Shown piece after piece: positions 32,711-55,669 of a stretch of DNA of 64,000 nucleotides (positions within the stretch are counted from its first letter, which is position 1; every line of letters begins with the position of its first letter). The DNA lies in NCBI GenBank assembly GCA_022703585.1, contig JAKLDJ010000004.1:71594-135593 (forward strand), given 5' to 3'. The position numbers and the translations under genes were made by a program. The notes below the pieces were generated by a model. It searched no databases, was not told the DNA's origin, and saw only the letters and a program-made list of their open reading frames with translations. This stretch comes from Candidatus Omnitrophota bacterium. Its GTDB lineage: Bacteria; Omnitrophota; Gorgyraeia; Zapsychrales; JAKLDJ01.

Positions 32711-32756
32711 TTTTATTGGCGGGGTAGCTCAGCCCGATAGAGCACTCGGCTCATAC
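32711..32756 (+). repeat. attL-like direct repeat (7 nt upstream plus first 39 nt of the tRNA(CAT) gene)
   Basis: ttttattggcggggtagctcagcccgatagagcactcggctcatac is identical to 46325-46370. The copy diverges immediately after the anticodon loop. Confidence 0.85.
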
Positions 32757-32864
32757 GCTATAAAATTAGAAATTAAAATTCAATTTTTTACTCCCATCAT
32801 TAATTAAATCCTCCCAAATAACCTTCATTGATTAAGAATAAGTTTGTCATAACGCTAAAATGTT

Positions 32865-33773
32865 ATGAAATTAAACGATGCGTATGATGAATTTATCAAC
32901 TCAGCACTTTTGGAAAGATGTTTAGAGCAAACAACTATTGATTGGTATTCTCGTTGCATTCAGCCAGTATTTAAATACTTCCGCTACAACCTCATTCCGC
33001 TAGAAGTTGATTCTCTAACAGTCGAAAATCTAAGAAAATATTTTATTAGTTACAAACAAAAAGGAAACACTTCAAGGACTGTGCTTAATGCAATGCAGGG
33101 CACTAGGTCTTTTTGTAGTTTTCTACTCAAGAGGGGGTATTTGCAAAAAAATCCTTTCCTTGAACTTGAAAAACCAAAGCTACCTAAAACACTTCCTGAA
33201 TTCTTAGATGAAGAAGAGGCAAAAAAATTACTACAAGCATGTATTAATCTCAAAAGAACCTACAAATCTAGGTGGAGCAGAGACATTGCTATTATCGCTT
33301 TGTTTCTCTTTGCTGGTTTGCGCAAGAAAGAACTTTTAAACTTAAAACTAAACGATTTCAATCAAGAAAAAGGATATATCAAAGTTTCTGCAAAGAATAA
33401 AGAGAGATTAGTTCCATTATGCGATACAGCTAAATCATTTCTACTGGATTATCTGAAAATAAGACCCAAAAGAGTGCTGGTCGATAATATTTTTGTGTCT
33501 ACTAACAGAAAATCATCTGCACTAACGCAACAGGGGTTATACGATTTATTCCTGGATTTACGTAAGCTAGTACAGTTTAGGATAAAGAAAAAGCTTAGCC
33601 CCCAAATTCTGAGGCATACTTTTTGCACCTTAATGCTCCGAAATGGCGTAAATTTGCGGGATATTCAGCTTTTAGCAGGGCATTCGGATATATCTACTAC
33701 GGCAAGATTTTATTTGGGGTGTGATGAAAAACAGCTAAAAAGTGCGGTAGATAGACATCCGTTGAATATTTGA
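32865..33773 (+). CDS. int: Tyrosine-type site-specific recombinase/integrase
   Basis: C-terminal catalytic region LRHTFCTLMLRNGVNLRDIQLLAGHSDISTTARFY (R...HxxR...Y). N-terminal SAM-like core-binding domain. Confidence 0.9.
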   Translation: MKLNDAYDEFINSALLERCLEQTTIDWYSRCIQPVFKYFRYNLIPLEVDSLTVENLRKYFISYKQKGNTSRTVLNAMQGTRSFCSFLLKRGYLQKNPFLELEKPKLPKTLPEFLDEEEAKKLLQACINLKRTYKSRWSRDIAIIALFLFAGLRKKELLNLKLNDFNQEKGYIKVSAKNKERLVPLCDTAKSFLLDYLKIRPKRVLVDNIFVSTNRKSSALTQQGLYDLFLDLRKLVQFRIKKKLSPQILRHTFCTLMLRNGVNLRDIQLLAGHSDISTTARFYLGCDEKQLKSAVDRHPLNI

Positions 33774-33797
33774 TTTTACCAGAAGAAAGCGTATAAT

Positions 33798-36700
33798 ATG
33801 CGCATGTCCGCATTAGTCGAAGAAAGAATAAAGAGATGGAAAAACAAATTAATAGACCTATCTAAACGTAATCGACTCCTCAATTTTAAGCCCACCAAAA
33901 CAACCACTATTCAGATTGTAGACGAAATTCCATCAGAAGCTTATCGTACTATTGTTCTAAATGAAAGTGTCATGTCTTTTCTTCCAGCAGATGGCGATAT
34001 CGAAGGCGACAAAGACAATACGGGTTCTTCCAGTCAGCTTGAAATAAAAGAATTTCAAGATTACGCTCAAGAAGAATTAGACACAAAACACACTGATTTA
34101 TACCTTCAAACAAACTTGGGTGAAAGCCATCTCGACAAGAATTTATTTCGCATTACTTCAATCGCTACATCGGTTATGGAAGAACAAGGTTATAACTCTT
34201 TGTTTTTGGCATTAGGTTTTTTGGAGTGGTATGAATCAAAAGATTCGGATGTTAAGTTTAGGTCTCCTATCCTTTTAATTCCTGTGCAATTAAACAGAAA
34301 ATCAGTCAAAAGTGATTATACTTTGAGTTTTGGTGAAGATGCGCCTATTTTGAATCCTGCATTAATATATATGCTTTCGCTTGATTTTGGCATTGATTTA
34401 GAGGACATAAGCGAAGAATTAGAACAAATTGAACCCAGAGAAATATTCAGAAAAATACAGGAAGCGATTCAGGAATTTGAACGTTGGAAAGTAACTAATG
34501 ATATCTTTTTAAGTTTGTTTTCATTTACGAAATTTATTATGTTTAAAGATTTAGAAAAGAATATGGGCACGCTCATTGATAATAAAGTTATCCAAATTAT
34601 TTGTGGTGTGGGGAGAGAAGAAAATATAGCCTTGGACGACATTTGCCCATTAGGAGAAATTGAGAAAAATACGAAACCGGAGAAAACTTTTCAAATTCTT
34701 GATGCAGACTCAAGCCAACAAAGAGCAATTCTCGTAGTCAAAAAAGGACATAACCTTATTATCGAAGGCCCCCCAGGAACAGGAAAGTCGCAAACAATAG
34801 CCAACATGATTGCGGAAAGTCTAACAGAAGGGAAGAAAGTATTATTTGTGAGTGAGAAAATGGCAGCTCTTGAGGTTGTAAAGAATCGGCTTGAATTAGC
34901 CGGTATTGGAGATTATTGCTTAGAACTGCATAGCCGTAAGACTAATAAAAAAAGGGTAGCTGAGGAACTTGGAAGGGTGATGGAACAACGAAAAAAGCCC
35001 GACCATAGCCATAATGATGAATTAGCTAAATTAGAGAGATTGCGTTCAGAATTAAATCGCTACGTATCAGATTTGCATAAAATATTTGGCGGGCTTCAGA
35101 TGACCCCGTACCAAGCAATTGGGATAGTTAATGCACATCCAGATATGCCAGACTTAGAATACATGTTTAATAACACCAAAGAGTGGTCAAAAGATAAATT
35201 TGATATAATCTGTGAACTTTTTGAGAAATTAAGTCGAAATATATTGAATATCGGACAACCACGATTGCATCCTTGGTTCGGTACAAGTCTTATCGAATTA
35301 GTTTATTCTGACAAAACAAATCTAAGAAACCATTTCAATAACATAAGTAGAATAGTTTCTGAGCTAAAAATTAGTATTGATGCATTGAGTGAAATCAGTT
35401 CATTTGGTGATGTAAAAACTATTTCCGATATTCAAGAATTGTTAGATGCATCTGAAATTTTGAAACTTTCGCCTAACGTAGCAAGTGATTTGCTAAAAGA
35501 TAAACGTTGGAATGATATCAGTGCAGATGTGAGACAAGCTATTAGTGCAGTACAAACATTTAATACTTTTGAGAAGAAATATTCAAGCCAGTATAAAATG
35601 ACGGTGTTGAATGAAAACATTGAGGAGATTCTCCAAAGATATAAAACTTATACGAGTAACATGTTTTTTGTATTTAAATTTAGTTTCTGGAAAGATAGTA
35701 AAGTTCTCAAGAGTCATTTTACAGGTAAGAGAAAAATTAACCTAAAGGAACTAATCAAGGAATTAGACGAATTATTTCTTTGGAAAAAGTCTGCACAGCA
35801 AATAGACGATTTTAGTAAAAATGGAAATGAGCTTTTTGGTGAACGATGGAGAGGGCGTAAGTCCAGTGGCGAAGAACTCCAAAAGTTCTCAGAATGGATT
35901 GTCAAATTTAGATATCATGTAATTAAGAATCATTTTAAAGATAAGGTTTTTGAAAGCAGCAAAGATAAATCTTCTCTTGAAGATTTACAAACGAAAGTAA
36001 AAAACAACTTGGATGAATTTAATGGTGTTTTAAGCTCAATCAATAGCATCGTAAAATTCGATTATAAATTAGCTTTTAGTACTAAGCTCTGCGAACATAA
36101 TGACCTTGATATGATAAGAGGGAAATTAAATAAGATGAGCGAGTCGATGGAAGAAGTAGACCCTTGGCTAAGCTTTCAGAGAGTATACCAAGAATGTGAG
36201 AAGGAGGGGTTAACTGAATTTATTGATGTGCTTTTAGCCAAAGATATTAAACCAGAAGCATACGTGACGGCTTTTAAATGTCAATTCTTACGATGTTGGT
36301 TGGATGAGGTTTTCTCTGAGAGAGATAGATTAAGAAATTTTCAAGGTAAAAACCATGAACAATTGATTGAGCAATTCAAACAATTAGATTGCAAACAAAT
36401 TGAATTGGCAAAGGTTCGAATCCAACATCTTCTTTCTGGAAATTATGATTCAAGTTGGAAAGGAGCTCAGAGTTCTGAGAGAGGAATACTGGAGCGTGAA
36501 GTTAGAAAAAAAAGAGCACATAAGCCTCTTAGAAAGTTATTTAAAGAAATACCTCACTTGTTATTATCACTAAAACCCTGTTTAATGATGAGTCCTTTAA
36601 CTGTCGCACAGTTTTTGGAGCCAGACTTATTCGATTTTGACTTGGTTATTTTTGATGAAGCTAGCCAAGTGCCTCCTCAGGACAGTATTGGAGCAATTAT

Positions 36701-38498
36701 GCGTGGTAAGCAAATAGTTATTGCAGGTGACGCTAAGCAGTTGCCACCAACTTCATTTTTTCAATCAACGGTATTGGATACTGAAGATGATGATGAATTT
36801 GATGAGTATATCCCAGAAGATTTAGATAGCATTCTAGATGAATGTGCGTCAGTTGGCTTGCCTCGGACTTTATTAGAATGGCATTACAGAAGCAAACACG
36901 AGTCTTTAATCGCATATTCGAACAAATATTATTATGAAAATAGATTAAATACTTTTCCTAATTCAATAGATGTGAGTGATACGCTTGGAATTAAATTCAA
37001 TTATTTTCCAGAGTCACAGTACCGTAAGGGCGGTGTAAATATTCTTGAAGCACAAGAAGTTGCTAAAAGAGTGTTTCAACATTTTAAGGAGAATCCTGAT
37101 ATAAGTTTAGGTGTGGGGACGTTCAGTATCAAACAAAAATATGCCATAGAGGATGCTGTTGAAGAATTAAGAAAGAACGATACAAGCTTAGAAGACTTGT
37201 TTTCTCCGGATAGGCCAGAGCATTTCTTTGTTAAGAATCTAGAATCAATACAGGGAGATGAGCGAGACGTAATCTTTATTAGTATTGGATATGGTAAGGA
37301 TGATTCTGGAAAATTGCCAATGAGATTTGGACCTATTAATCAACTGGGTGGAGAGCGAAGGCTTAATGTTCTTATTACGCGAGCAAGAAGACGATTAGAA
37401 ATCTTCAGCTCAATACGAGGCTCCGACTTTGACTTGACTAAAACAGAAAGTGAGGGAGTGCACCTTCTCAAGAAATATCTCGATTATGCTGAGCTGGGAA
37501 GAAGCGTACTGCTTCAGGATATCGAATATTCGAATTCATCTAGTTATTCTGACTCTCCATTCGAGGAGGCAGTATATGAATCTTTAGTCAGGGCAGGATT
37601 TAAGGTTCATCAACAAGTTGGGTGTTCAGAATATAGAATTGATATGGCTATCGTCGATGTTGAATTACCGGGCAAGTATGTACTTGGCATTGAATGTGAT
37701 GGAGCAAATTATCATTCAAGTATTACAGCAAGAGATAGGGATAGACTGAGACAGCAGGTCTTAGAGGGCCTGGGATGGAATATTTATCGAATTTGGTCTA
37801 CCGATTGGTTTAAAAATAAGAAGAAGGAAACAGAAAGATTGATTGAGGCAATTAGAGAAAGCCAGAAGGGAAATAGTAAAAAAAAACTAAATAAATATAC
37901 TAGTTTTGAAATAAAACTCAATTCCGCCTCCACAGAGACATTATCGAATAAAGATAGGAAATTGGTAGATTATCAATTAACTCCCGTGGATTCCATCAGA
38001 ACATCAGATTTTTATTATCAATCAGATGAAGTTCTAGCTCAAATTTTAATTAAAATAGTCAAGTGTGAGGGGCCGATTTTTTATGAAGAAGCATGGAGGA
38101 GATTAATCCAACACTGGGGGATGCGGTCTGTAGGCAGTAGGATTCGACTCAAATTAAAAGGCTTAGAGCAATACTGCTTAAATAATAAGAAATTTGAGAA
38201 ACGAAAAGATTTTTATTGGCTTAATAAGCATCAAGAATTGAAGATTAGGAACAGAGACGTTAACGATGTTTATAAAAAGATTGAGTATGTTGCCCCAGAG
38301 GAAGTCCAAGAAGCAGTGAAATATGTTTTAAATATGGAGTACTCAATACCACTAGTTTCTTTAATATCTCAAACAGCTAAATCATTAGGCTTCCATAGGA
38401 TTGGTGATGACGTTTATTCATATATTAAGAAAGCGATTGATTTGCTTATAAAAAATGAAGATTTGTATGAAGACAACGGCAATATAAGGATTAAGTAA
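33798..38498 (+). CDS. Giant helicase-nuclease: DUF4011-like N-terminus, Upf1-like SF1 helicase (AAA_11/AAA_12), Vsr/DUF559-like PD-(D/E)xK nuclease and DUF3320-like tail
   Basis: 1566 aa. SF1 motifs: Walker A EGPPGTGKSQT, Walker B VIFDEASQV, motif III IAGDAKQLPPT, motif V IQGDERDVIFIS, motif VI NVLITRARRRLEIF. C-terminal endonuclease-like block: FEEAVYESLVRAGFKV...EYRIDMAIVD...LGIECDGANYH. Confidence 0.8.
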   Translation: MRMSALVEERIKRWKNKLIDLSKRNRLLNFKPTKTTTIQIVDEIPSEAYRTIVLNESVMSFLPADGDIEGDKDNTGSSSQLEIKEFQDYAQEELDTKHTDLYLQTNLGESHLDKNLFRITSIATSVMEEQGYNSLFLALGFLEWYESKDSDVKFRSPILLIPVQLNRKSVKSDYTLSFGEDAPILNPALIYMLSLDFGIDLEDISEELEQIEPREIFRKIQEAIQEFERWKVTNDIFLSLFSFTKFIMFKDLEKNMGTLIDNKVIQIICGVGREENIALDDICPLGEIEKNTKPEKTFQILDADSSQQRAILVVKKGHNLIIEGPPGTGKSQTIANMIAESLTEGKKVLFVSEKMAALEVVKNRLELAGIGDYCLELHSRKTNKKRVAEELGRVMEQRKKPDHSHNDELAKLERLRSELNRYVSDLHKIFGGLQMTPYQAIGIVNAHPDMPDLEYMFNNTKEWSKDKFDIICELFEKLSRNILNIGQPRLHPWFGTSLIELVYSDKTNLRNHFNNISRIVSELKISIDALSEISSFGDVKTISDIQELLDASEILKLSPNVASDLLKDKRWNDISADVRQAISAVQTFNTFEKKYSSQYKMTVLNENIEEILQRYKTYTSNMFFVFKFSFWKDSKVLKSHFTGKRKINLKELIKELDELFLWKKSAQQIDDFSKNGNELFGERWRGRKSSGEELQKFSEWIVKFRYHVIKNHFKDKVFESSKDKSSLEDLQTKVKNNLDEFNGVLSSINSIVKFDYKLAFSTKLCEHNDLDMIRGKLNKMSESMEEVDPWLSFQRVYQECEKEGLTEFIDVLLAKDIKPEAYVTAFKCQFLRCWLDEVFSERDRLRNFQGKNHEQLIEQFKQLDCKQIELAKVRIQHLLSGNYDSSWKGAQSSERGILEREVRKKRAHKPLRKLFKEIPHLLLSLKPCLMMSPLTVAQFLEPDLFDFDLVIFDEASQVPPQDSIGAIMRGKQIVIAGDAKQLPPTSFFQSTVLDTEDDDEFDEYIPEDLDSILDECASVGLPRTLLEWHYRSKHESLIAYSNKYYYENRLNTFPNSIDVSDTLGIKFNYFPESQYRKGGVNILEAQEVAKRVFQHFKENPDISLGVGTFSIKQKYAIEDAVEELRKNDTSLEDLFSPDRPEHFFVKNLESIQGDERDVIFISIGYGKDDSGKLPMRFGPINQLGGERRLNVLITRARRRLEIFSSIRGSDFDLTKTESEGVHLLKKYLDYAELGRSVLLQDIEYSNSSSYSDSPFEEAVYESLVRAGFKVHQQVGCSEYRIDMAIVDVELPGKYVLGIECDGANYHSSITARDRDRLRQQVLEGLGWNIYRIWSTDWFKNKKKETERLIEAIRESQKGNSKKKLNKYTSFEIKLNSASTETLSNKDRKLVDYQLTPVDSIRTSDFYYQSDEVLAQILIKIVKCEGPIFYEEAWRRLIQHWGMRSVGSRIRLKLKGLEQYCLNNKKFEKRKDFYWLNKHQELKIRNRDVNDVYKKIEYVAPEEVQEAVKYVLNMEYSIPLVSLISQTAKSLGFHRIGDDVYSYIKKAIDLLIKNEDLYEDNGNIRIK

Positions 38499-38524
38499 AA
38501 TATGTTTTAATAAATATACAATTT

Positions 38525-38734
38525 ATGAATGACCTATTTGATGAATTCTTAGAATATGATTTTACTATGGGGGTTGATGTTGTGAAGTGCCCGCATTGCG
38601 GTGGTGACGTGCAATGCAGCCTTTTCATTGATAGCGAAGTTGAATGTTCAGGGTGTGGAAAAAAATTTCATAAGGATGAATTAAGAGCAAATCGTAAGAA
38701 TCCTAAAGACACAATACCTAAACAGCCGAATTAG
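38525..38734 (+). CDS. Small zinc-ribbon protein
   Basis: 69 aa with CPHCGG...CSGCGKKFH (two CxxC pairs). 26 bp downstream of the helicase-nuclease gene. Confidence 0.5.
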   Translation: MNDLFDEFLEYDFTMGVDVVKCPHCGGDVQCSLFIDSEVECSGCGKKFHKDELRANRKNPKDTIPKQPN

Positions 38735-38777
38735 GTCGAGAAAAGGTTCTGTCTTTATATTATAGGGCATAGAAACT

Positions 38778-41309
38778 ATGTTTAATTTCTTCAAATTTCA
38801 AAATTATCGCTCTTACTGGAAAATAAGAAATTTGGTTTTATTATCTAAATTTTGGATACATAGGTTGTTTTTTCAAGGTAATTTAAAAATAAAAGACGCT
38901 CAGGAAGAGTTGTCAATAGTTACTCACCTAACATGGCTTGCTTCAAAAACCATTCTTTTTTCTATTCTTATCGTAGTATCTTGTGAATCATTCGAAAAAG
39001 CAATATTAAAATTTCTCCCTACTAATACAACAATCCTTCTAGCGGGAATGCACGACTTAGTTATAAGAAACTCCAGTTCTTTGGAGAATTTTATCATGAC
39101 GATTGCTTCGATACTAGGCGTGTTCTTGGGTCTTTACTTTACTGCAATTAGTATCGTAGCTAGCTCGGTATTTACAGCTGTGCCGAGCAATGTTAGAGAG
39201 TTGTACTTAAAAGAGAAAATTGGGAATACCTATATACGGATATTGGCTATCCTTTTAGCAATTTCGATTATAATCTTTGGCTGTCGGATATTTGGCTATT
39301 ACCCAAGCACGCTGCTAACCGTTTTAATGCTGATTTTTAGCTGTGTCAGCATATTCGCATTTGTAATGTTGGGGGTTAGAGCCTTTTCCTTCTTCGACCC
39401 CACTGTGTTAGTAGATATAATTTTTGCGGATTTATATGCAGATATAAGATTGGCGAGTGTAAGTGGCCTAAGGTGGCTCGATTCTAACTTTCAGTCTCAT
39501 TACCATAAGCTTGCATCAAAAAACGTAAACACCCTTGCTAATTTGGTCGAAATATGTCTAAAAAATCCTCATTTATACAAGAAATCTGTCCCGTTGCTAT
39601 CATGGCGTCTATGCTATTTTTTAAAAGATTATCAAATGCAAAAAGCCCGAATACCTACTGATAGTTACTGGTTTTCACGTATACCAAAATATAAAGACAC
39701 CTTCATCGTAGACGACACAACTTTAACAGTAGCATTACAAACTCAAACTTCTATTCAACCGGAATCTATAACTGATAATTATTGGCTGGAAGATGAAATT
39801 TTTGAAATCCTTACGAATATGCTTAGCATTATGTTAAATAATCACAATATTATAATCTCTGCCGATATTTTAGATGGTATTAATAAATATTTTGAAGATT
39901 TGGGAGAGAAACTGGAGGGTAAGAAATGCTGCGATATGTTTAAGAAAATAGAAGCAGTAATGGAACCTTATTTTCTAAGTCTTTCTGAAGAAAAATGTAA
40001 AGGAATAGCGGATGTAAATTTTGCTCTGTTTGATAGATATAACATGCTTCTGTTGTCTTGCGCGATGGGATTCAATAAATTTATTCGTGAATTCAAAACA
40101 TCTTCCTTTATGCAAAACATAGATTCCATTTTGTGGGAGGATAGGGGTGCTATTTATCGAAACTCTATGGTGCCGATGCTATTGGAAAGGCTAGAATTCC
40201 TCCAAAAACGCCTCGAATTTGAACAGAAAGTAGAAGGGGAGTTTGTTAGCCCTACTTGGTACAGAAGACAGTTACTTAGTAATAAAATTGGCTTAATAGT
40301 GAACGAAGTTTTTGAATCAATGATGAGTTCATTGCAAAATTTTTATGTTAATAGTTCCAGCGCACTTTTAAACAAAAAAGCAGTTATCTTAACAACATAT
40401 AGGGCAAAAAGAGGTCTCGAAGTATTCTGGAAAATGCAAACCCATATTCTGCATCTCAAGAAACTGATTGAAAATCTCGAAAAATTTAACATAGAAAAAG
40501 AATTGTTTTGGCCAAAGTGGGATTGGGATGTTATTGAGAAGAAAATCGATAAAAATAATGATGCCCTCATACAACAAGAAGCTAAATGCCTTCCGGCACT
40601 ATCTATCATAAATAAAACAGAGAATGAGCCAGACCTCTTCGGCGAAACATATCATAAAATCTGTGAAGAATGTTTTGCATCTTTGGCAAATAATAAAGAT
40701 GAAAAATTCTCCACAATATTTCATTCCTTATTTATAGGTGCTCTTCAAGCGCATGACCGCCTTAGAATTTCGTATAAAGACCGTGACGCCAGAACTCAAA
40801 TATTAATTTCATTTCAGCCATTAGCAGACCTTATAGAAGTAAGTGGCTATGCCAAAATATATTCTGAGTTGTTCTCTTCTCCAAAACTATGGGAAACGTG
40901 CCAGGAATGTTGGAATAATTATTTAAATAATAAAGAAAAGAAAGATGAAACAATAGAATACATCATTACGAGTTACCAATATAAAAAGGCACAATTCGGT
41001 TTATTTGCACGAGATATTTGGAAAACAAATTGGCAAATTAAACTTAATAGAAAATTGCAAGAAATGAATTTAATCGACAGTATGTTTAGAGAAGACGATT
41101 ATCCGAGAAAGCCAAAAGAGAGACTTGCGGATAAAAGTCCTTTTATCCGAACTCTGTGCAGAGGGAGATATGAACCATTTATTCGTGCTTCAGAAATTTT
41201 TCTCCTCATTTATTTTGTAAAACAACTTGGAGTTAAGAACTTTTCCGATAATCATAATTTTATTCGGCATTTGGAAGAGGAAGAAGCTAAGACCAATGTT
41301 ACGAAATAA
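38778..41309 (+). CDS. Large multi-pass membrane protein (≈6 N-terminal TM helices + ~600-aa cytoplasmic helical region), function unknown
   Basis: 843-aa ORF with hydrophobic helices between residues ~45-230 and a Lys/Glu-rich alpha-helical remainder. No recognisable catalytic motif. Confidence 0.6.
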   Translation: MFNFFKFQNYRSYWKIRNLVLLSKFWIHRLFFQGNLKIKDAQEELSIVTHLTWLASKTILFSILIVVSCESFEKAILKFLPTNTTILLAGMHDLVIRNSSSLENFIMTIASILGVFLGLYFTAISIVASSVFTAVPSNVRELYLKEKIGNTYIRILAILLAISIIIFGCRIFGYYPSTLLTVLMLIFSCVSIFAFVMLGVRAFSFFDPTVLVDIIFADLYADIRLASVSGLRWLDSNFQSHYHKLASKNVNTLANLVEICLKNPHLYKKSVPLLSWRLCYFLKDYQMQKARIPTDSYWFSRIPKYKDTFIVDDTTLTVALQTQTSIQPESITDNYWLEDEIFEILTNMLSIMLNNHNIIISADILDGINKYFEDLGEKLEGKKCCDMFKKIEAVMEPYFLSLSEEKCKGIADVNFALFDRYNMLLLSCAMGFNKFIREFKTSSFMQNIDSILWEDRGAIYRNSMVPMLLERLEFLQKRLEFEQKVEGEFVSPTWYRRQLLSNKIGLIVNEVFESMMSSLQNFYVNSSSALLNKKAVILTTYRAKRGLEVFWKMQTHILHLKKLIENLEKFNIEKELFWPKWDWDVIEKKIDKNNDALIQQEAKCLPALSIINKTENEPDLFGETYHKICEECFASLANNKDEKFSTIFHSLFIGALQAHDRLRISYKDRDARTQILISFQPLADLIEVSGYAKIYSELFSSPKLWETCQECWNNYLNNKEKKDETIEYIITSYQYKKAQFGLFARDIWKTNWQIKLNRKLQEMNLIDSMFREDDYPRKPKERLADKSPFIRTLCRGRYEPFIRASEIFLLIYFVKQLGVKNFSDNHNFIRHLEEEEAKTNVTK

Positions 41310-42279
41310 AAAAATACACCAAGACGAAAAAAGTTCGATGAAATCCATTTATTACACTCCTTTGGAGCATCGAAGGGATGTGTACAGCTCTTTTTATAAT
41401 CACATGCTAACCGAAGATATTCATTTGGGCATAATGCCCTTTGGCGGAAGAACCAAAAATGAGTTGTTTAAAGTAGCAGTTAAACCACAGGATGCGGAAA
41501 TCGAGAATTTAATAAAAGATAGTTTACTTACGCATCACGGCGAACCGTATGATTTAAAAGAAGCGATTTGCGACTTTATTGACGAAGCTGCTGCATTACT
41601 AGGATACGATGGCGTAGCTTATTACGAAATTGTATATTATACGACTTCCAAAAAGCCGACACGATTTGAGTTGCACCGTATTATCAACAGAAATATAAAA
41701 GATACGTTTGGATTATACTGGCAGTATATCCCGAGTGCTGCACGAAAATATATAGAAACGGATAAGAAATTCATCTGGCTACCTAAGAGGAGAATTATTA
41801 AAATAAAATTTCCCAGTATAATTGGTGGTTTAAATTCTCAACGAACATTAATCCACAACCTAACATGGCTGAGCGAATGTAGCGTAACACCGAAATTTGC
41901 AATGGAAGACATGAAAAAACAAAAGCAAACAAACGATTATGATTTCGTAGTTTACCAGAGAAACAAGAACATATTTTTAGCTAGAATAACGCAACGTTTA
42001 GGATGGTCTGCTCGAGGCGAATTGAATGATTATACATTAGATATTTATCAGTTATACCGATACCTAAAATTTGAGAAAACCAAAGCAATTATCCGAGAAA
42101 CTGTTTTAGGCAATCTTAATAAAGCACTAGCTACTATCGGTAAAGAAATTGGTTTTAATGCAACAATCGAAATAAGCGGTATTCCTTCAGCATCAGATTT
42201 TGATAATTACATAGATAAGCTTCTTTCGGGAGAAATGCCATTTGCCAAGGTTGTCGAGATTATGAAATATGATTGGTAA
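41296..42279 (+). CDS. Hypothetical protein, translationally coupled to the upstream membrane protein
   Basis: ATG at 41296 overlaps the preceding stop by 14 nt. 327 aa with no recognised domain. Confidence 0.5.
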   Translation: MLRNKKIHQDEKSSMKSIYYTPLEHRRDVYSSFYNHMLTEDIHLGIMPFGGRTKNELFKVAVKPQDAEIENLIKDSLLTHHGEPYDLKEAICDFIDEAAALLGYDGVAYYEIVYYTTSKKPTRFELHRIINRNIKDTFGLYWQYIPSAARKYIETDKKFIWLPKRRIIKIKFPSIIGGLNSQRTLIHNLTWLSECSVTPKFAMEDMKKQKQTNDYDFVVYQRNKNIFLARITQRLGWSARGELNDYTLDIYQLYRYLKFEKTKAIIRETVLGNLNKALATIGKEIGFNATIEISGIPSASDFDNYIDKLLSGEMPFAKVVEIMKYDW

Positions 42280-42618
42280 TAGCACTATTTGTTTCCAGAG
42301 AAAAACGCGAGATTGCCGATTAAGGCAGAAAATAGCTACCGATTAGTTAGAGGTCTATGATAAAATACCGATAAATTAACCTGATGTGGAAATGGCAGCA
42401 TAAAAATTTCAGAGAGGGAGGTTTACAGAGTAAAATATTTTAAATATTTAGGAACATAGCTTTTCCTAATTAATAAACCAACTTGTGAGAGGAAGAGACT
42501 GTGTCCTGGGCACTTCGGTGCTTGGGGCAAGCGGTCTTTCGCTTTTACTCACAAGTTGGGCGTTAGACTTAAAAATGCTTGCCCTTTTTTATTTGGGTAA
42601 GCCTAAAAGGAGGGGACA

Positions 42619-43131
42619 ATGATAGCATCGCTAGTAACTTTAATAATTGTTATTGGGTCATCGATTTGGATAGCTATTGATGCACATCGAAACAAGATTT
42701 CCACTGACAATAAGCCGTACCGGATAAATAGCGGTGCTGTGACTTGGTTTTTTGCTTGTCTCTTATTCTGGATTTTTGTACTCCCTGCCTATCTCTTCAA
42801 GAGATTCAAACATCTAAAAGCCCAAGGAAAAAACTCTATCCTAGCAACTGTAGTGGGGATTATTCTGTTAGCAGTTCCAATCATGATGTTTACTGGCATC
42901 ATGAAGATGCCCACCTTAGACCTCCAAGAACAGGTTAAGCAAAGCATAATAGAGACGTGGTCAAGAGAGCCAACGATGGCAAATACTCAAATTCAGTCCT
43001 TTACGTTAATTCACAAAAGCAACAACCAGTATGAGGGTTTACTTGAAGTCACGATGAATGGGGTGGCTACAAGATTTCTCATAGATGTCACGTACGATGG
43101 TAGGAAATTTATGTGGCAAATTAGGCAATAA
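42619..43131 (+). CDS. Small membrane protein (2-3 TM helices + C-terminal soluble domain)
   Basis: 170 aa with GGAGGGG RBS and hydrophobic segments at residues ~5-25, 40-60 and 70-95. Confidence 0.5.
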   Translation: MIASLVTLIIVIGSSIWIAIDAHRNKISTDNKPYRINSGAVTWFFACLLFWIFVLPAYLFKRFKHLKAQGKNSILATVVGIILLAVPIMMFTGIMKMPTLDLQEQVKQSIIETWSREPTMANTQIQSFTLIHKSNNQYEGLLEVTMNGVATRFLIDVTYDGRKFMWQIRQ

Positions 43132-43627
43132 TCTCTGGCATAGCTTTTTAAACATTTTGTAGTCTAAGAACTTATCAAAACTGCTTCGAAAAGCATATTA
43201 TATTATTCAAAAGTTTCCTATAAAGCATCAAGCCCCACCAATCTTTCCCCGAAAATACATCGAAGAAAACCACTTTGTAAATCTAATTAAATATCATAAA
43301 TCATTTATTTGCAACAGGTTACTGTTAGTCACTACAGATTTTTATACAAAAAATAGGCGTATTCAGAGAAAGATAGGGTAGGTAGAGCTAAATTTCAGAC
43401 CGGGGTTGAGCGAAGAGCGACCCACCGGGTATTGGTCAACCATCAAAGAGTAGTCACGTAGACTACTAGTCGATGGCTATCAGTGCTGCCTAGCAAATCA
43501 CATGTTGCTCAAGAATTCGTTGAACCTAGCCTATGCCGGAGCGCAAATAAGCAGCTCCAAATTTAATCTGCCAACTATTTCTAAATGTTTTTCTCGTCGA
43601 GAAATCAAGTTTTTCAAAAAAAAGTAC

Positions 43628-43656
43628 TTGACAAAATTATTTTTGTGTTCTATAAT
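43628..43656 (+). promoter_or_regulatory. Consensus sigma70 promoter (TTGACA-N17-TATAAT) inside the island
   Basis: ttgacaaaattatttttgtgttctataat has perfect hexamers with 17-nt spacing. It reads into the iteron-like repeats and the small ORF / repO-like gene. Confidence 0.6.
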
Positions 43657-43689
43657 TTGCTTGTAACATGTTGGTGCTGAATGACTTGC

Positions 43690-43817
43690 GTGGATTTTTT
43701 GCGGACGAAAAGTGGATTTTTCATGGAAATAGAGTGGATTTTTCGTAATATATCTGAAAGGAGGTGATAATATTTAAAGAATAAAAAAATAAAAGAAAAC
43801 GGATAAATCGTGGATTT
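43690..43817 (+). repeat. Iteron-like direct repeats GTGGATTTTT (x3 at ~21-23-bp spacing, plus a fourth degenerate copy)
   Basis: gtggattttt occurs at 43690, 43710 and 43733, with cgtggattta at 43808. Two-helical-turn spacing, located immediately upstream of a lambda-O-like initiator gene. Confidence 0.55.
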
Positions 43818-43937
43818 AGCGATTTATAGTAGCCCTTACTCTGTCTGGTGTAGATTAGGGGCATTTTTTTAACATAACCTTCTGATTCTTAGCTGAATCG
43901 GGGGGTTTTTTATTAAAGAATAAAGAAGGAGGGCTCT

Positions 43938-44156
43938 ATGAATAACAAACCAAAACAAAAAATCAGATTCGGCGATGTCAATTTATGCGTCTGGGAAAAT
44001 ACGATTAAGATAAAGGATAATGCTGTCCCGGTTTTGACATATACTTTCAGCAAATCGTATCGTTCGAGAGGTAAATTCAAATACATGAGAAACTTTCAAA
44101 AACAGGATTTACCTAACATCACCAAAGCGATAGAAATAATTTCTGGTTCTCGCTGA
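43938..44156 (+). CDS. Small hypothetical protein
   Basis: 72-aa ORF with AAGGAGGG RBS. Lys-rich and of no recognisable family. Confidence 0.4.
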   Translation: MNNKPKQKIRFGDVNLCVWENTIKIKDNAVPVLTYTFSKSYRSRGKFKYMRNFQKQDLPNITKAIEIISGSR

Positions 44157-44221
44157 GCAAAACTAGATAAAGAAAAAATATATATCAAAATACAACTTTA
44201 AAATAAAAAGGAGATAAAAAA

Positions 44222-45139
44222 ATGGACAATTTTAAAAACCTTTGGCAACCCTACGATGATAAGAAATCACTTTTGTGGACAAAAATTCCAAATTGCTTAT
44301 TGCTTTTTCTTATGCAAGGTAAGCAAAGGTTCACAGAAATTAGAATTATTTTATTAATTTGTCGTATGGGCTTCGGATTCAAAAGAGAGGAGACTAATTA
44401 TCTTGATTTGAAAGACTTTGAAAAAGCCACAGGATTAAATAAAAGCCAAGCTTCTAAGGCAATAAATTCACTCTTAAGCGCATATGTGATATTCCGCTAC
44501 TCGAAGAATGGTAACAAGTATAAGTATGCAGTTAATCTTTTGAAGCATGGCATAGAAATGAAGCATTTCCGAATTGGTAAAATGGATAGCCAAAAAGATA
44601 ATGGGATTTATCAGATTGGAAATATAGATTACCAATTAGACAATTATAACGGCTCGAAGAATGAGCTAATTCTATATAGTTCCAAGGGTTACAAGAATGT
44701 AAAAAACCCCTATATAAAAGAGGATAGAAAAGATGATATAAAAATAGATATAGCAAAAAGGCATGCCAGTAGTCCTGTTTCTAGCAGTCCTACTAGCAAT
44801 ACTTTAACTGGCAACGCTAGCCAAACTACCAAGAGTAAAAAATACAATAACACCATGGAATTAGCTCAGGATTTTGATAAAGAACTATATAAAGCAAATA
44901 TAGAAAAGGATGGTGAAAAATTGCTAATTAGATTCATAGAATTAGAGCATTCACAATTTCCCGACCAAAGGCAACCTTGGCTCATACCAAGTATTTATTG
45001 TGACTATACAGCCAGAAAAATAGCTGGATTAACTGAGGAGATGTATACCAAAGAGCTTAATAAAATTCTGGAAAATGCCAATAAGTTACGAAACGAATTA
45101 AACTCTAGATGTAGCGAATTACTAAAGAATAAAAAATAG
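44222..45139 (+). CDS. Replication initiator / replisome organiser, phage lambda O-like N-terminal winged-helix
   Basis: N-terminal segment TEIRIILLICRMGFGFKREETNYLDLKDFEKATGLNKSQASKAINSLLSAYVI follows the lambda O / phage_rep_org_N pattern (xxLLxIxRxTxGxxK...TGL...AIxxL). Adjacent to iteron-like repeats. Confidence 0.55.
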   Translation: MDNFKNLWQPYDDKKSLLWTKIPNCLLLFLMQGKQRFTEIRIILLICRMGFGFKREETNYLDLKDFEKATGLNKSQASKAINSLLSAYVIFRYSKNGNKYKYAVNLLKHGIEMKHFRIGKMDSQKDNGIYQIGNIDYQLDNYNGSKNELILYSSKGYKNVKNPYIKEDRKDDIKIDIAKRHASSPVSSSPTSNTLTGNASQTTKSKKYNNTMELAQDFDKELYKANIEKDGEKLLIRFIELEHSQFPDQRQPWLIPSIYCDYTARKIAGLTEEMYTKELNKILENANKLRNELNSRCSELLKNKK

Positions 45140-45219
45140 AATAATACATCTATCGCGTTTTTGCGAAGGAACATTTCCATTGACATTTGCTGAAGCATTT
45201 GTTATGGTATACCAAAACT

Positions 45220-45393
45220 ATGAAATACTATACCATAAGTCAACTTGCTAAAGAGCTTAAAGTGCATAAAAATACCATTTTCTATTGGGAGAAAACGGGT
45301 AAAATACCTAAACCCAAGAGAGAATCTGTAAGCGGTTATCGTGTTTGGACAGAGAAAGATGTAAAAAAGATAAGAGAGTCAAATTCGAGGTGA
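45220..45393 (+). CDS. MerR/excisionase-like HTH protein (candidate Xis or regulator)
   Basis: 57 aa. YTISQLAKELKVHKNTIFYWEKTGKIPKPKRESVSGYRVWTEKDVKKI follows the MerR-type/Xis pattern. Sits near attR. Confidence 0.5.
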   Translation: MKYYTISQLAKELKVHKNTIFYWEKTGKIPKPKRESVSGYRVWTEKDVKKIRESNSR

Positions 45394-45396
45394 AAA

Positions 45397-46215
45397 ATGA
45401 CAATAAATAACTACGATGAATCTCACATAGAACGAAAATATTTTATCGATGGACATATGTATAATTGTCCTTTCTGTAATATTAGAAATGTACAATACGA
45501 GATTTCTAATTCGGGAAGATTTTCTTGGTCACGTGAGCGAGATTGCTATTTTTATCTTGTCAAGTGCAGTCATTGCGACCACACTTCTTTTCATTTAAGT
45601 AATTATGATTTGGTTAGAAATTATGGTCATTTTGAAAATCCGCCAAAACAGCGTAAGATTATTCAAGGAGAAAATCAAAGCTTCAAAATTTTGAAAAATG
45701 GAGTAGAAGTCATGGAGCTTGATGAAGTATTCTTTTATCATCAGCCAACAAGCTTCTTCACAATAGATAACAGAATACCTGAAATTATACGAAATCTTCT
45801 TTCTGAAGCTGAAGGCTGTAGAAAAATGGATTATCTTGTGGGTGCTTCGGGCTGTTTAAGAAAAGCTATTTATGAATTGCTAGACTTACAAGAAATCGGC
45901 AACGAAGAAAATGATACTAAATTACCCTACGAGGAAAGAATAAAACGACTAAAAGGAAAATTTCCTAACATAGATTCGGAATATTTTGATATTCTTGCTG
46001 GAATACAAGGCATGACAAGCGATAACCTTCATGAAGGTTCTTGGGATAGCTTTGATTCTCGAACTCTAGCTCTATTAATAGAGACAACCAAAGAAATCTT
46101 ATATGAAATTTATGTTTTACCTGATGAAAAAAAGACAAAAAGGAACATAATAGCTAAAATGCGAGAACAATTTAAACAACAAAAATCAACAGCCGATACC
46201 GAATCAAAAACTTAA
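45397..46215 (+). CDS. Zinc-finger protein with C-terminal DUF4145-like helical domain
   Basis: N-terminal CPFCN...CSHCDH zinc ribbon. The C-terminal ~100 aa (LRKAIYELLDL...ILAGIQGMTSDNLHEG...) resembles a DUF4145-type module, recalled from memory. Confidence 0.4.
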   Translation: MTINNYDESHIERKYFIDGHMYNCPFCNIRNVQYEISNSGRFSWSRERDCYFYLVKCSHCDHTSFHLSNYDLVRNYGHFENPPKQRKIIQGENQSFKILKNGVEVMELDEVFFYHQPTSFFTIDNRIPEIIRNLLSEAEGCRKMDYLVGASGCLRKAIYELLDLQEIGNEENDTKLPYEERIKRLKGKFPNIDSEYFDILAGIQGMTSDNLHEGSWDSFDSRTLALLIETTKEILYEIYVLPDEKKTKRNIIAKMREQFKQQKSTADTESKT

Positions 46216-46324
46216 TTTAATAACAGAAAGGAGAAAGCATACTAGACAAATAATTCTTAGTCAATGGTTGTAAAAAATATTGAATTTTTGTCAATTTTAG
46301 CTTAGAATCCTTCAATTATATTAA

Positions 46325-46370
46325 TTTTATTGGCGGGGTAGCTCAGCCCGATAGAGCACTCGGCTCATAC
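46325..46370 (+). repeat. attR-like direct repeat (7 nt upstream plus first 39 nt of the intact tRNA)
   Basis: Identical 46-mer to 32711-32756. Confidence 0.85.
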
Positions 46371-46405
46371 CCGATTGGTCGAGAGTTTAAATCTCTCCCC
46401 CGCCA
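46332..46405 (+). tRNA. tRNA with CAT anticodon (elongator Met or Ile2/lysidine type)
   Basis: Hand-folded cloverleaf: acceptor GGCGGGG/CCCCGCC, D-arm GCTC-loop-GAGC, anticodon loop CTCATAC (CAT), T-arm GAGAG-TTTAAAT-CTCTC, discriminator A, no encoded CCA. G1-C72 rules out the initiator. tilS lies 1.2 kb downstream. Confidence 0.8.
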
Positions 46406-46488
46406 CTTTCTCTCACAAACCCCACCCGAAAATTCCGTAGATTACTTTGCCCCGTATCAGTATAATAAGGAAGCAAAGGAGGGGACCC

Positions 46489-54685: not shown

Positions 54686-55192
54686 ATGTTAGCAATTTTA
54701 TTACTGACCTTCGGATTCGCAACACGCCTTTTTATCCACACACCTAATTTTACTCCGGTTATCGCGCTCGCGCTTTTTGGCGGCGTCTATTTAAACAAAA
54801 AATACGCCCTGATTTTGCCTTTAGGTCTCATGGCGATTTCTGATATGGCGATCGGTATGCACAATGTCGTCTTTTTTACCTGGGGAAGCATTGTGGCCAT
54901 CGCACTTTTAGGGATGTGGCTTAAGAGCCGCAACAACTGGGTCAATATTGCCAGCACCAATCTTGTCGGGGCTGTCTTGTTTTTCATTGTTACCAATTTC
55001 GGTGTCTGGGCTATGGGTTGGTATCCGCTGACCCTCGCCGGCTTAGCCGATTGTTTCTGGCTGGCGATACCGTTTTTTAGAACCACACTGCTCAGCACTA
55101 TTGTTTACAGTGTCATTTTGTTCGGTTTATACGAACTTGTTGCTTACCGGGTTAAAGACACACGTCTAGCCCGTGTTCTTTTGACAAACTAA
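54686..55192 (+). CDS. Small polytopic membrane protein (5-6 TM), ECF-transporter S-component-like
   Basis: 168 aa, almost entirely hydrophobic helices, with a structured leader upstream. The family is uncertain. Confidence 0.45.
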   Translation: MLAILLLTFGFATRLFIHTPNFTPVIALALFGGVYLNKKYALILPLGLMAISDMAIGMHNVVFFTWGSIVAIALLGMWLKSRNNWVNIASTNLVGAVLFFIVTNFGVWAMGWYPLTLAGLADCFWLAIPFFRTTLLSTIVYSVILFGLYELVAYRVKDTRLARVLLTN

Positions 55193-55204
55193 AAGTAATC
55201 TAAT

Positions 55205-55415
55205 AGGTTCCTGCAACTCGGCCCCCAGAAATTCTTACCGGGCCAAAGGAATAAAAGGGAAGTCCGTTTGATTCGGACGCGGTCCCGCCGCTGTGATCCG
55301 GCCTTTTTCTTAAAAAGAAAAAGGACCCTTTTGACAGTCATCAGCCACTACTTTAATCAAGTGGGAAGGCAGTCAAAAGAGAAGGAAAGCCAGAAGACCT
55401 GCCTGTTAGTTATGT
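55205..55415 (+). promoter_or_regulatory. Cobalamin (adenosylcobalamin) riboswitch
   Basis: aataaaagggaagtccgtttgattcggacgcggtcccgccgctgtga, gccactac...gtgggaaggcagtc (B12-box) and gccagaagacctgcc match conserved blocks of the E. coli btuB leader and the RF00174 consensus. Followed by expression-platform hairpins and a TonB-dependent receptor gene. Confidence 0.8.
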
Positions 55416-55669
55416 TGCTGATATCGCGCGAGACGATATTCAAACGCATAGATTGGGACTAAGAAATCAGGGTGCACTCCCAACTGCCTCTAAAAGGGCG
55501 GTTGGGAGTTTTGTTTTTAGGCCCGGCGAAGCTCAAGCGCAGAAGCGTTTGAGCTTCGCCGAGGCAACACCGCCGTTTGTTTCGTTCGCCAAGATTTGTG
55601 GCGGACGAAACAGGCGGTGTAGACCACCCCGGTTTTTCTAAAAAAGAATTTCAATAATGGAGAACAAAA

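Follow-up and report, generated by a model that had tools for sequence, protein, structure and literature searches.

The 64-kb window, that is, the whole stretch of DNA that was analysed, contains within an Omnitrophota tRNA-Met gene a mobile island of ~13.6 kb (13,614 bp, ~32757-46370), which is delimited by a 46-nt direct repeat, identical at 32711-32756 and 46325-46370. The left copy (attL, 32711-32756, + strand), at the left end of the element, is the displaced 5' half of the tRNA-Met gene and extends from 7 nt 5' of the gene through the anticodon loop; the right copy (attR) overlaps the intact tRNA-Met gene (46332-46406; repeat and gene together 46325-46406, + strand), and both the 5' half of this working gene and its promoter-like site (46280-46308) are element-derived. 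The GC content falls from 0.46-0.49 outside the att repeats to 0.33-0.36 between them, all ORFs of the element are intact, closely packed and on a single strand, and the island sequence is identical across all the samples examined. An intact tRNA gene, a displaced fragment of it in the same orientation and an integrase gene between the two are present, as in a tRNA-gene integrative element in the sense of Islander, and a 5' tRNA gene fragment upstream of the intact gene is an accepted island configuration (PMC4383910). From its sequence, the island looks like an intact integrative element with defined ends, its att repeats enclosing an integrase gene and an excisionase-like one.

The integrase (32865-33773, + strand) is a tyrosine integrase of the XerC/D-like type (Pfam Phage_integrase, E 3.3e-28), with XerC/XerD-like NCBIfam matches under the equivalog cut-offs and without an arm-binding domain, and anti-phage cargo is found in the form of a ProA/Hhe-like helicase-nuclease. 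Apart from this cargo protein, no helicase, primase or loader gene is encoded by the element. In particular, no P- or DnaC-like loader/helicase gene is found directly 3' of the rep gene described below, where a MerR-like HTH gene and a zinc-ribbon gene are located instead. The former (45220-45393, + strand), which is preceded by a promoter-like site (45180-45208), encodes a small HTH protein of the MerR_1/HTH_17 class (Pfam MerR_1 7.1e-11, and HTH_17) with a match to phrog_66 'excisionase and transcriptional regulator' (3.2e-8) and a TIGR01764 'excise' score under the cut-off of that model; it is a candidate excisionase or AlpA-like regulator, and a homologue of its gene is also found 3' of rep in a related locus (L017). 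No partition NTPase (ParA, ParM or TubZ) was found among the genes of the element with Pfam, PHROGs and NCBIfam, Pfam and PHROGs revealed no remnants of phage structural or lysis genes, and ORFs of 843, ~313-350 and 170 aa, for which the scans gave no annotation, might have a novel function.

In front of rep, the earlier note had described a non-coding stretch of about 800 bp with a perfect TTGACA-N17-TATAAT promoter, followed by a small ORF and then by a 305-aa ORF, and all of these features were recovered. The stretch measures 806 bp (43132-43937) and holds no convincing ORF. The sigma-70 promoter (43628-43656, + strand) matches the consensus at 12/12 positions, with TTGACA at 43628-43633, a 17-nt spacer and TATAAT at 43651-43656, and an UP-element-like A/T tract lies directly 5' of it (43600-43627); it is one of 2 perfect matches in the window, where 3 matches with at most 1 mismatch are found versus 0.36 expected. 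The two ORFs (43938-44156 and 44222-45139, + strand) both have good ribosome-binding sites, that of the first being strong. This small ORF of 72 aa, which is a gene call in public assemblies, returned identical copies only in a homologue search, besides a weak match to phrog_21148 (E 1.8e-4).

Two successive intrinsic-terminator-like hairpins with U tracts (43832-43913, + strand; ~43832-43870 and ~43876-43913), absent from the earlier account, sit between the repeats and the ORFs. A 13-bp stem was found at 43876-43907, and both the minimum free energy and the centroid folds contain the two hairpins, so that the predicted promoter-to-terminator transcript, starting near 43663, is of ~205-250 nt. 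Since the two terminators precede rep, the promoter at 43628-43656 is not simply the rep promoter, and its most likely roles are the transcriptional activation of an origin (as lambda pR) and/or Rep-controlled read-through into orf72-rep. A scan of 43100-44250 against Rfam returned no family even at E up to 5.

Downstream of the promoter, GTGGATTTTT is found exactly at 43690, 43712 and 43734, and these are its only exact copies on either strand of the window. The three evenly spaced repeats (~21-23 bp) and the degenerate fourth that had been reported are thus confirmed, the steps being exactly 22 + 22 bp and the fourth repeat, GTGGATTTAG, lying at 43810-43819 (+ strand) in the same orientation as the others; the 8-mer GTGGATTT occurs 4 times in the 64 kb, always on the + strand and always in the array region, the fourth copy included. 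The exact copies belong to an iteron array of five 11-bp units (43688-43743, + strand), with GGA cores spaced at exactly 11 bp: the units at 43688-43742 read, in order, GCGTGGATTTT, TTGCGGACGAA, AAGTGGATTTT, TCATGGAAATA and GAGTGGATTTT, with exact GTGGATTTTT in units 1, 3 and 5 and only the GGA core retained in units 2 and 4. All five units face the same side of the DNA helix. The repeats are far beyond chance, as a GGA run this long was obtained in none of 5000 shuffles of the intergenic region and the array is the sole case in the window of an 11-bp GGA run of at least 4 units. TRF did not report a 22-bp tandem array, because the 12-bp spacers between the repeats differ.

A purine- and AT-rich tract, overlooked in the earlier note, separates repeat 3 from repeat 4. 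With 78-82% A+T and a top strand that is 76-80% purine, this tract (43745-43805, + strand) falls at the 95th percentile for A+T and at the 99.5th percentile for purine among the 50-bp windows of the element, and is a candidate DNA-unwinding element. Two features of an iteron-type theta origin are found together, namely at least three helically phased repeats in the same orientation and an adjacent AT-rich tract with predicted unwinding. Two other identities of the array were considered and rejected: it is not a cluster of DnaA boxes, the repeat sharing only ATCCAC with TTATCCACA and differing from it by 3 mismatches, nor a set of arm-type integrase sites, lying 2.6 kb from attR in an element whose integrase has no arm-binding domain. 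No DnaA box within 1 mismatch of TTATCCACA, a consensus that may not be that of the host, was found in 43132-44222, and no inverted half-iterons were found at the rep promoter.

The array lies ~480 bp 5' of rep (44222-45139, + strand), which encodes a predicted initiator of 305 aa of the Phage_rep_O family and is itself devoid of a repeat array. The homology to lambda-O-like initiators proposed in the earlier note withstood the profile searches: aa 19-95 match Pfam PF04492 Phage_rep_O at 30.3 bits versus a gathering cut-off of 28.7, and the same family is matched by 43 of the 44 closest relatives (best E 4.2e-11), as compared with MarR in 1 and a weak Rep3_N match in 2 of the 44. The PHROGs matches of Rep are 'replication initiation O-like' and 'DnaD-like helicase loader'. 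As the cut-off of NCBIfam TIGR01610 phage_O_Nterm is not reached (23.3 versus 45.5 bits), Rep represents a distant subfamily rather than a lambda O equivalog; with hhalign, the family motif PN..L....E.rIlL.I.RmSfGF.R aligns with lambda O residues 29-65. In the predicted layout, a lambda-O-type winged helix (~aa 10-120), with its recognition helix at ~aa 74-86, is accompanied by a beta element; residues 161-201 form a disordered Ser/Thr/Pro linker and residues 202-304 a C-terminal domain of four helices. In an AlphaFold model built from the 44-sequence alignment (a single-sequence run reached a pLDDT of 40.6) the N-terminal domain is a winged helix with pLDDT >90, and DnaD-NTD is among its long, low-rmsd fold matches. 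Searches with tblastn gave no matches among collected phages or plasmids, and no relative was found when IMG/VR was scanned.

Homologues of Rep are linked to tyrosine integrases in four loci (L001, L005, L008 and L141). One of these is a 6.9-kb Omnitrophota element (L005), in which 44 nt from the 5' half of tRNA-Thr are repeated exactly at the two ends and the Rep of which is 43% identical to the one described here. It carries, 5' of a small ORF and rep, a strong-weak-strong-weak-strong array of 5 x 11 bp with a different motif, CGTCTACA, beside which are found an AAA+ clamp-loader-like gene, the small ORF (unrelated to the 72-aa ORF), rep and the integrase. GGA is missing from the L005 array, and neither a consensus promoter nor terminators accompany it; the promoter-terminator bracket is not seen there. 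In L008, which adjoins tRNA-Arg, 3 x 21-bp repeats are located between rep and the integrase, 3' of rep and away from the rep promoter. No set of at least 3 phased repeats near rep was found in L001, L006/L007, L016, L018, L140 and L141, several of which have short flanks, and a clear phased array is missing in about half of the informative relatives. The earlier note had made its reading depend in part on the conservation of the repeats in homologous islands: equivalent arrays near rep do occur (L005 and L008), but their sequence differs. The predicted pairing of Rep with the iterons thereby gains comparative support, related Reps being associated with different arrays of the same architecture.

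Outside L008, where one copy was found, GTGGATTTTT is absent from the related loci. This copy shares a 14-mer with iteron 1 and was considered as a conserved iteron, but the local BLAST E of 0.18 and the equally good low-complexity matches led to its being taken as chance; a scan of viral contigs with the same 14-mer returned scattered single matches only.

An excised form was sought among public contigs. Of the contigs inspected for each flanking or rep protein (13-15 per protein), all either hold the integrated island or are broken at the repeat, and no circular or empty-site form was present among them; likewise, a search for the empty site through the flanking DoxX and 117-aa ORF returned occupied or broken contigs only. 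A Logan contig of 13,628 bp, close to the 13,614 bp of the element, was considered as a circle and rejected, since each of its ends lies precisely k-1 = 30 nt inside a 46-nt repeat, as expected from a k=31 de Bruijn graph break.

We consider it reasonably likely that 43628-45139 is the replication module, made of an iteron origin and its initiator, of a replicative integrative element, by analogy with SGI1, PLE and the lambda origin. The presence of an origin of plasmid or phage type together with the element's own lambda-O-like initiator makes self-copying after excision probable. In such a scheme, the integrase and the small MerR/excisionase-like protein would excise the element as a circle; Rep, as monomers or dimers, would bind the phased repeats cooperatively and thereby bend the DNA, and the AT-rich tract beside them would then melt. 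The C-terminal domain of Rep, which varies across the family, may recruit the host replicative helicase, the element contributing no helicase, primase or loader, and theta-type replication would then prevent loss of the excised circle. The consensus promoter would transcribe through the repeats and the AT-rich tract, to be halted by the two terminators. A bolder version, which we regard as rather doubtful, is that of a self-contained, transcription-driven origin, in which the ~205-250-nt transcript, or the R-loop left by it, would open or prime the origin or else act as a Rep-titrating decoy; such an origin, without a DnaA box, would be independent of the host and, with the lineage-specific Rep and the replacement of the tRNA 5' half, would define an undescribed class of Omnitrophota 'integrative plasmids'.

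The same locus may be read as a regulatory switch only, Rep being a transcription factor of the MarR/Cro type and the repeats its operators (roadblock or autoregulatory) just 3' of a very strong promoter, in control of e.g. excision or defence genes. Indeed, fold searches do not separate the winged helix of Rep from MarR-type repressors, fold and PDB-sequence searches return mainly MarR/ArsR-type repressors, the repeats begin 34 bp past the -10 box, a classic operator position, a Cro/cI-type HTH gene lies just 5' of the rep homologue in L140, and the element has neither helicase or primase genes nor a DnaA box. However, the family is Phage_rep_O in nearly all its members, the long linker and separate C-terminal domain of Rep are initiator-like, and an AT-rich tract preceded by five sites that all point the same way and are spaced by 11 bp has the architecture of an origin, whereas repressors typically bind one or two palindromic operators. 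Furthermore, the repeats of L008 are placed away from the promoter of its rep and the array of L005 adjoins a clamp-loader-like gene, so that a purely regulatory role seems unlikely. A role in partition, with the repeats as a parC/tubC-type centromere and Rep as a ParR/TubR-like adaptor, recalls the tandem direct repeats that form type II/III centromeres 5' of their operon, and TubR is among the Foldseek matches, but no better than generic winged-helix ones; with no ParA, ParM or TubZ gene in the element and a Pfam family that is Phage_rep_O and not a partition adaptor, it is very improbable.

The perfect promoter with its upstream A/T tract, followed by two hairpins with no ORF in between, would also suit a gene for a small RNA of ~205-250 nt, in which the GGA motifs would act as a CsrB/RsmZ-type sponge or the RNA as a regulator of orf72-rep, the repeats in the DNA being incidental. 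The number of GGA triplets (8 in ~130 nt) and a fold energy modestly better than that of shuffles (z = -2.46) are in its favour, but an exact 11-/22-bp period belongs to the DNA helix, not to RNA, the GGA motifs are held in predicted stems and not in loops, Rfam offers no counterpart, and the L005 array does without GGA, consensus promoter and terminators. As an exclusive explanation the small RNA is thus improbable; the two readings are compatible, in that a real transcript could serve the origin. It is also hardly probable that the O-like gene and the repeats are relics of a lambdoid prophage or an integrated plasmid that has decayed, in an island now passive or immobile, as might be suggested by the failure to find an empty site or a circle in the contigs read, by the missing partner loader/helicase gene and by the identity of the island in all samples examined. 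The ORFs are intact, tightly packed and on one strand, the att repeats are still identical over 46 nt and the three strong repeats still exact, and no structural or lysis remnants accompany them. Moreover, the int-rep-array backbone recurs in the minimal 6.9-kb element with its exact 44-nt att repeats, which argues for rep being a core function rather than debris.

The reading as a replication module can be placed among known systems. Rep resembles lambda O in that its N-terminal winged helix belongs to Pfam family PF04492, and in the succession of DNA-binding domain, flexible linker and C-terminal domain (predicted for Rep); as in the lambda origin, about four repeats at ~20-24-bp spacing are followed by an A-rich purine tract, and a strong promoter would drive transcription across the predicted origin, in the manner of lambda pR. 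The differences are that the lambda iterons are of 18 bp, contain inverted repeats and lie inside the O gene, whereas those described here are 10-bp direct cores in non-coding DNA, that no P-like loader gene follows rep, that the C-terminal domains are unrelated and that the element is not a phage. In iteron plasmids (pPS10, F, R6K, P1 and RK2), as here, direct repeats recur every 22 bp next to an AT-rich unwinding element (a candidate one here) and the Rep gene adjoins the origin, but their initiators are of the WH1-WH2 Rep_3 type and DnaA boxes and inverted half-iterons are usually present.

The closest match for the way in which the module would be expected to work is SGI1 (Salmonella genomic island 1), an integrative island that groups int, xis and rep with an iteron oriV (four 17-bp direct repeats and AT-rich regions) and that becomes a replicating plasmid only once excised (PMC7433901). 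SGI1 differs in its RepA_C-type Rep, in the DnaA box of oriV, in the AcaCD/IncC helper trigger and in conjugative mobilization; neither a helper signal of this kind nor a DnaA box or a transfer function could be recognized here. The RepA of Vibrio cholerae PLE combines a DnaD-like winged-helix N-terminus with a lineage-specific C-terminal domain and binds non-coding repeats (PMC7145576), and PLE, too, is an integrated element with no helicase or primase and with an initiator made of a winged helix and a C-terminal domain; however, its RepA is of the RepA_N and not of the Phage_rep_O family, and PLE is a proven satellite that needs ICP1 to replicate. With PICIs (phage-inducible chromosomal islands) and SaPIs (PMC6092414), the element shares a size of ~10-15 kb, an integrase at one end, frequent anti-phage cargo and an origin of its own (predicted here) with repeats flanking an AT-rich region. 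Their Pri-Rep primase-helicase initiators, packaging/capsid-redirection genes and divergent regulatory pair were not recognized here, and the genes of the element are all on one strand. Packaging or capsid-redirection genes (terS, cpm, ppi and the like) gave no match in Pfam or PHROGs, in scans that covered the 843-aa ORF without PHROGs and the integrase without PHROGs and PADLOC. As no packaging or capsid-hijack gene was recognized, the PICI/satellite label given in the earlier note is unsupported.

The mechanism is not surprising, since iterons and an initiator on an excisable island are established for SGI1, PLE and PICIs; the design is familiar and the phylum unfamiliar. Omnitrophota are a widespread, largely uncultured phylum, for which we know of no genetic tools and of almost no described mobile elements. 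The module, with its Rep subfamily of ~44 members, would be a first candidate native replicon for Omnitrophota, and compact elements of 7-14 kb that combine an integrase, a replicon and anti-phage cargo would extend to a new phylum the picture of defence genes carried on small self-replicating integrative elements. The final gene of the island (45397-46215, + strand) encodes a 272-aa protein with an N-terminal zinc ribbon, which matches phrog_1305 at 4e-7 and has 199 homologues across candidate phyla, one of them annotated as DUF4145.

The module at 43628-45139 of the window, comprising a promoter, a repeat array, an AT-rich tract, a small ORF (orf72) and the gene (rep) of a 305-aa protein, is probably an origin of the iteron type together with its cognate initiator, a reading based on phased repeats in the same orientation, an adjacent AT-rich tract, membership of Rep in the lambda O family and an excisable context. 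The array contains three copies of GTGGATTTTT (43690, 43712 and 43734), the first 34 bp past the -10 box, and the window has no other exact copy on either strand. All four occurrences of the 8-mer GTGGATTT in the 64 kb are in this array region and on the + strand, the fourth within GTGGATTTAG at 43810. The earlier note had described three evenly spaced copies and a degenerate fourth, as is indeed the case, the spacing being exactly 22 bp. In an 11-bp register, five units can be read (GCGTGGATTTT, TTGCGGACGAA, AAGTGGATTTT, TCATGGAAATA and GAGTGGATTTT), each with a GGA core, at a period of exactly 11 bp, which was equalled in 0 of 5000 shuffles of the intergenic region and is the sole run of at least four in the window. 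Between repeats 3 and 4 lies a stretch (43745-43805) with 78-82% A+T and 76-80% purine (95th and 99.5th percentiles within the element, respectively); repeats and neighbouring AT-rich tract follow the same order as in lambda ori. No DnaA box was found near the array (43132-44222, up to 1 mismatch).

The array is part of an 806-bp stretch without a convincing ORF (43132-43937), which also harbours a perfect sigma-70 consensus promoter (43628-43656; TTGACA at 43628-43633, a 17-nt spacer and TATAAT at 43651-43656). Only two perfect TTGACA-N17-TATAAT sites are present in the 64-kb window, where sites with at most 1 mismatch number 3 versus 0.36 expected; the second perfect site (2677-2705), ~90 bp upstream of an ORF at 2798-3859, shows the canonical consensus to be in use by the host. 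Two terminator-like hairpins with U tracts (~43832-43870 and 43876-43913) separate the repeats from orf72 (72 aa, 43938-44156) and rep (44222-45139), both of which have a good ribosome-binding site. What the earlier note had observed, including the ~800-bp non-coding stretch and the perfect promoter, is thus confirmed and can be stated more precisely. No Rfam family matched the non-coding region (43100-44250). Upstream of the promoter, a GC-richer segment (43380-43560, ~50%) with a fold z-score of -2.9 includes a 16-bp imperfect palindrome (43440-43455/43461-43476); no ORF, Rfam match or homologue was found for it, and it is possibly an accessory origin element, a single-strand initiation site or an oriT-like site.

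The lambda-O-like N-terminus proposed for Rep is borne out by the Pfam model Phage_rep_O, which matches aa 19-95 at 30.3 bits, above its gathering score of 28.7, and by PHROG matches to the families 'replication initiation O-like' and 'DnaD-like helicase loader'; with the stricter NCBIfam model phage_O_Nterm the score (23.3) is under the cut-off of 45.5. A word-indexed search returned only one relative, while HMMER, run exhaustively against 1.84 billion representatives, gave 92 proteins at E <=1e-3 and 44 at E <=1e-10. Phage_rep_O is matched independently by 43 of these 44 closest relatives (best E 4.2e-11), MarR_2 by one and Rep3_N by two, and the family signature PN..L....E.rIlL.I.RmSfGF.R aligns with lambda O residues 29-65 in hhalign. 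An AlphaFold model built with the 44-sequence alignment predicts an N-terminal winged helix with a beta element (pLDDT >90 for ~aa 10-120), a disordered Ser/Thr/Pro-rich linker (aa 161-201) and a four-helix C-terminal domain (aa 202-304). Lambda O follows a three-part plan, which the predicted structure of Rep shares. The fold searches, which do not tell an initiator from a repressor, led to winged-helix proteins of a generic kind, DnaD-NTD being one of the longest matches with low rmsd; no match to the C-terminal domain was found.

The module belongs to a 13.6-kb element bounded by a 46-nt direct repeat (32711-32756 and 46325-46370), which extends from 7 nt upstream of the tRNA-Met gene to the anticodon loop, i.e. 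the 5' half of the tRNA. GC is 0.33-0.36 between the repeats versus 0.46-0.49 outside. Integration displaces the 5' half, a configuration explicitly permitted in the Islander pipeline (PMC4383910), and the intact tRNA-Met (46332-46406) receives both its 5' half and a promoter-like site (TTGAAT-N17-TAGAAT, 46280-46308) from the element. All genes are on the + strand: a tyrosine integrase (32865-33773); the main cargo, a 1566-aa DUF4011/SF1 helicase/MTES_1575 nuclease/DUF3320 protein (33798-38498), which matches the anti-phage models PDC-S37 (1627 bits), ProA (1474 bits, just below the 1500 cut-off) and Hhe; a zinc-ribbon ORF and three ORFs without annotation; the module; a small MerR_1/HTH_17 protein (45220-45393) that has excisionase-like matches; and, last, a protein of 272 aa (45397-46215) whose N-terminus has a CxxC...CxxC zinc ribbon. 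The latter is a member of a large family without Pfam assignment (199 hits, ~45-65% identity) in Omnitrophota, candidate-phyla-radiation lineages and Brocadiales, one member being annotated DUF4145; its gene looks horizontally mobile and is possibly defence-related.

The rep gene behaves as part of the backbone of small elements that bear an integrase. In an Omnitrophota MAG, L005 encodes a 43%-identical Rep in a 6.9-kb element delimited by exact 44-nt copies of the tRNA-Thr 5' half (L005 5296-5339 and 12233-12276), with the same 5'-half replacement; this arrangement is the rarer of the two tDNA configurations. Its array of five 11-bp units (TACGTCTACAT, CATCTCACCAG, AACGTCTACAA, CCCATCTACAG and CACGTCTACAA) precedes a small ORF, rep and a tyrosine integrase, and has the strong-weak-strong-weak-strong layout of the window's array, with different motifs. 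Directly upstream of it, an AAA+ protein with DNA_pol3_delta2 and RFC-lid domains (L005 8226-9233, clamp-loader-like) has no counterpart in the window's element. A second tyrosine integrase (L005 4119-5339 region) stops ~100 bp short of the displaced tRNA-Thr fragment, which points to two integrative elements lying in tandem at this one tRNA gene. In L008 (Rep 32% identical; order rep, integrase, tRNA-Arg), the non-coding DNA that separates rep from the integrase contains three 21-bp repeats (TAAAAGTrAgCCCATAA). L017 (52% identical) has a ~36-bp repeat twice upstream and a MerR-like gene downstream, and in L141 the neighbours of rep are a tyrosine integrase, a DUF4011 defence gene similar to the cargo gene of the window's element, and a WYL regulator. 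At least three phased repeats near rep were found neither in L141 nor in L001, L006/L007, L016, L018 and L140, the flanks being short in several. Across the related elements the motifs differ and the repeat sequence is thus not conserved, while an equivalent phased array stands beside a diverged Rep in two of the better-sampled relatives, as would be expected for initiator and iterons evolving together. The 14-mer TTGCGTGGATTTTT (iteron 1 with its 4-nt left flank), present once in non-coding DNA downstream of rep in L008 (3341-3354), was rejected as a conserved iteron, being probably due to chance (BLAST E 0.18 in a small local database). No relatives were found in phage, plasmid and IMG/VR collections.

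Rep would bind the repeats and melt the AT-rich tract, its C-terminal domain would recruit the host helicase (no helicase, primase or loader was found in the element), and the excised circle might thereby undergo theta replication. The consensus promoter, terminated short of the ORFs, may provide transcriptional activation of the origin and/or Rep-controlled read-through into orf72-rep. Precedents for such a function exist in SGI1, with an int-xis-rep-oriV cluster, four 17-bp iterons and replication only after excision (PMC7433901), and in PLE, whose winged-helix-only initiator RepA binds repeats in a non-coding region (PMC7145576). That the module is instead a purely regulatory pair of operator and repressor is unlikely; that it is a small-RNA gene with repeats acting at the RNA level, which would be compatible with an origin, is doubtful to a greater degree, as is its being a non-functional relic, and a partition centromere is hardly credible. 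Evidence against each of the four comes from the exact helical phasing at 11 and 22 bp, the Phage_rep_O assignment throughout nearly all close relatives, the linker and C-terminal domain of Rep, and an array that recurs in the minimal L005 element. At the level of sequence analysis, there is support for a replicative integrative element that has an iteron origin and an initiator. Its main points of interest are the host phylum, Omnitrophota (public records give the host as a Candidatus Omnitrophota MAG), and a Rep subfamily that is lambda-O-like and lineage-specific.

Neither a circular junction nor an empty site was found in database contigs carrying the element or its flanks, and an element-sized Logan contig was rejected as a circle, being due to a break of the assembly at k=31. 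The PICI/satellite-like label that had been proposed is unsupported, as no gene for packaging or capsid redirection was recognised in the element, three ORFs of which are unannotated.

The 340-bp gap upstream of a 170-aa membrane-protein gene contains a long, very stable hairpin with a UUCG-capped tip (42448-42560; MFE -63.4 kcal/mol, z = -6.7), which has no Rfam match and shares ~79% identity with the end of the related contig L001 (1-105, reverse strand); it may represent a structured RNA or a palindrome bound by a protein. Finally, a cobalamin riboswitch (55188-55420; Rfam RF00174, 86 bits) precedes a Plug/TonB-dependent receptor gene (55670-57703), this region (55188-57703) being ordinary host chromosome.
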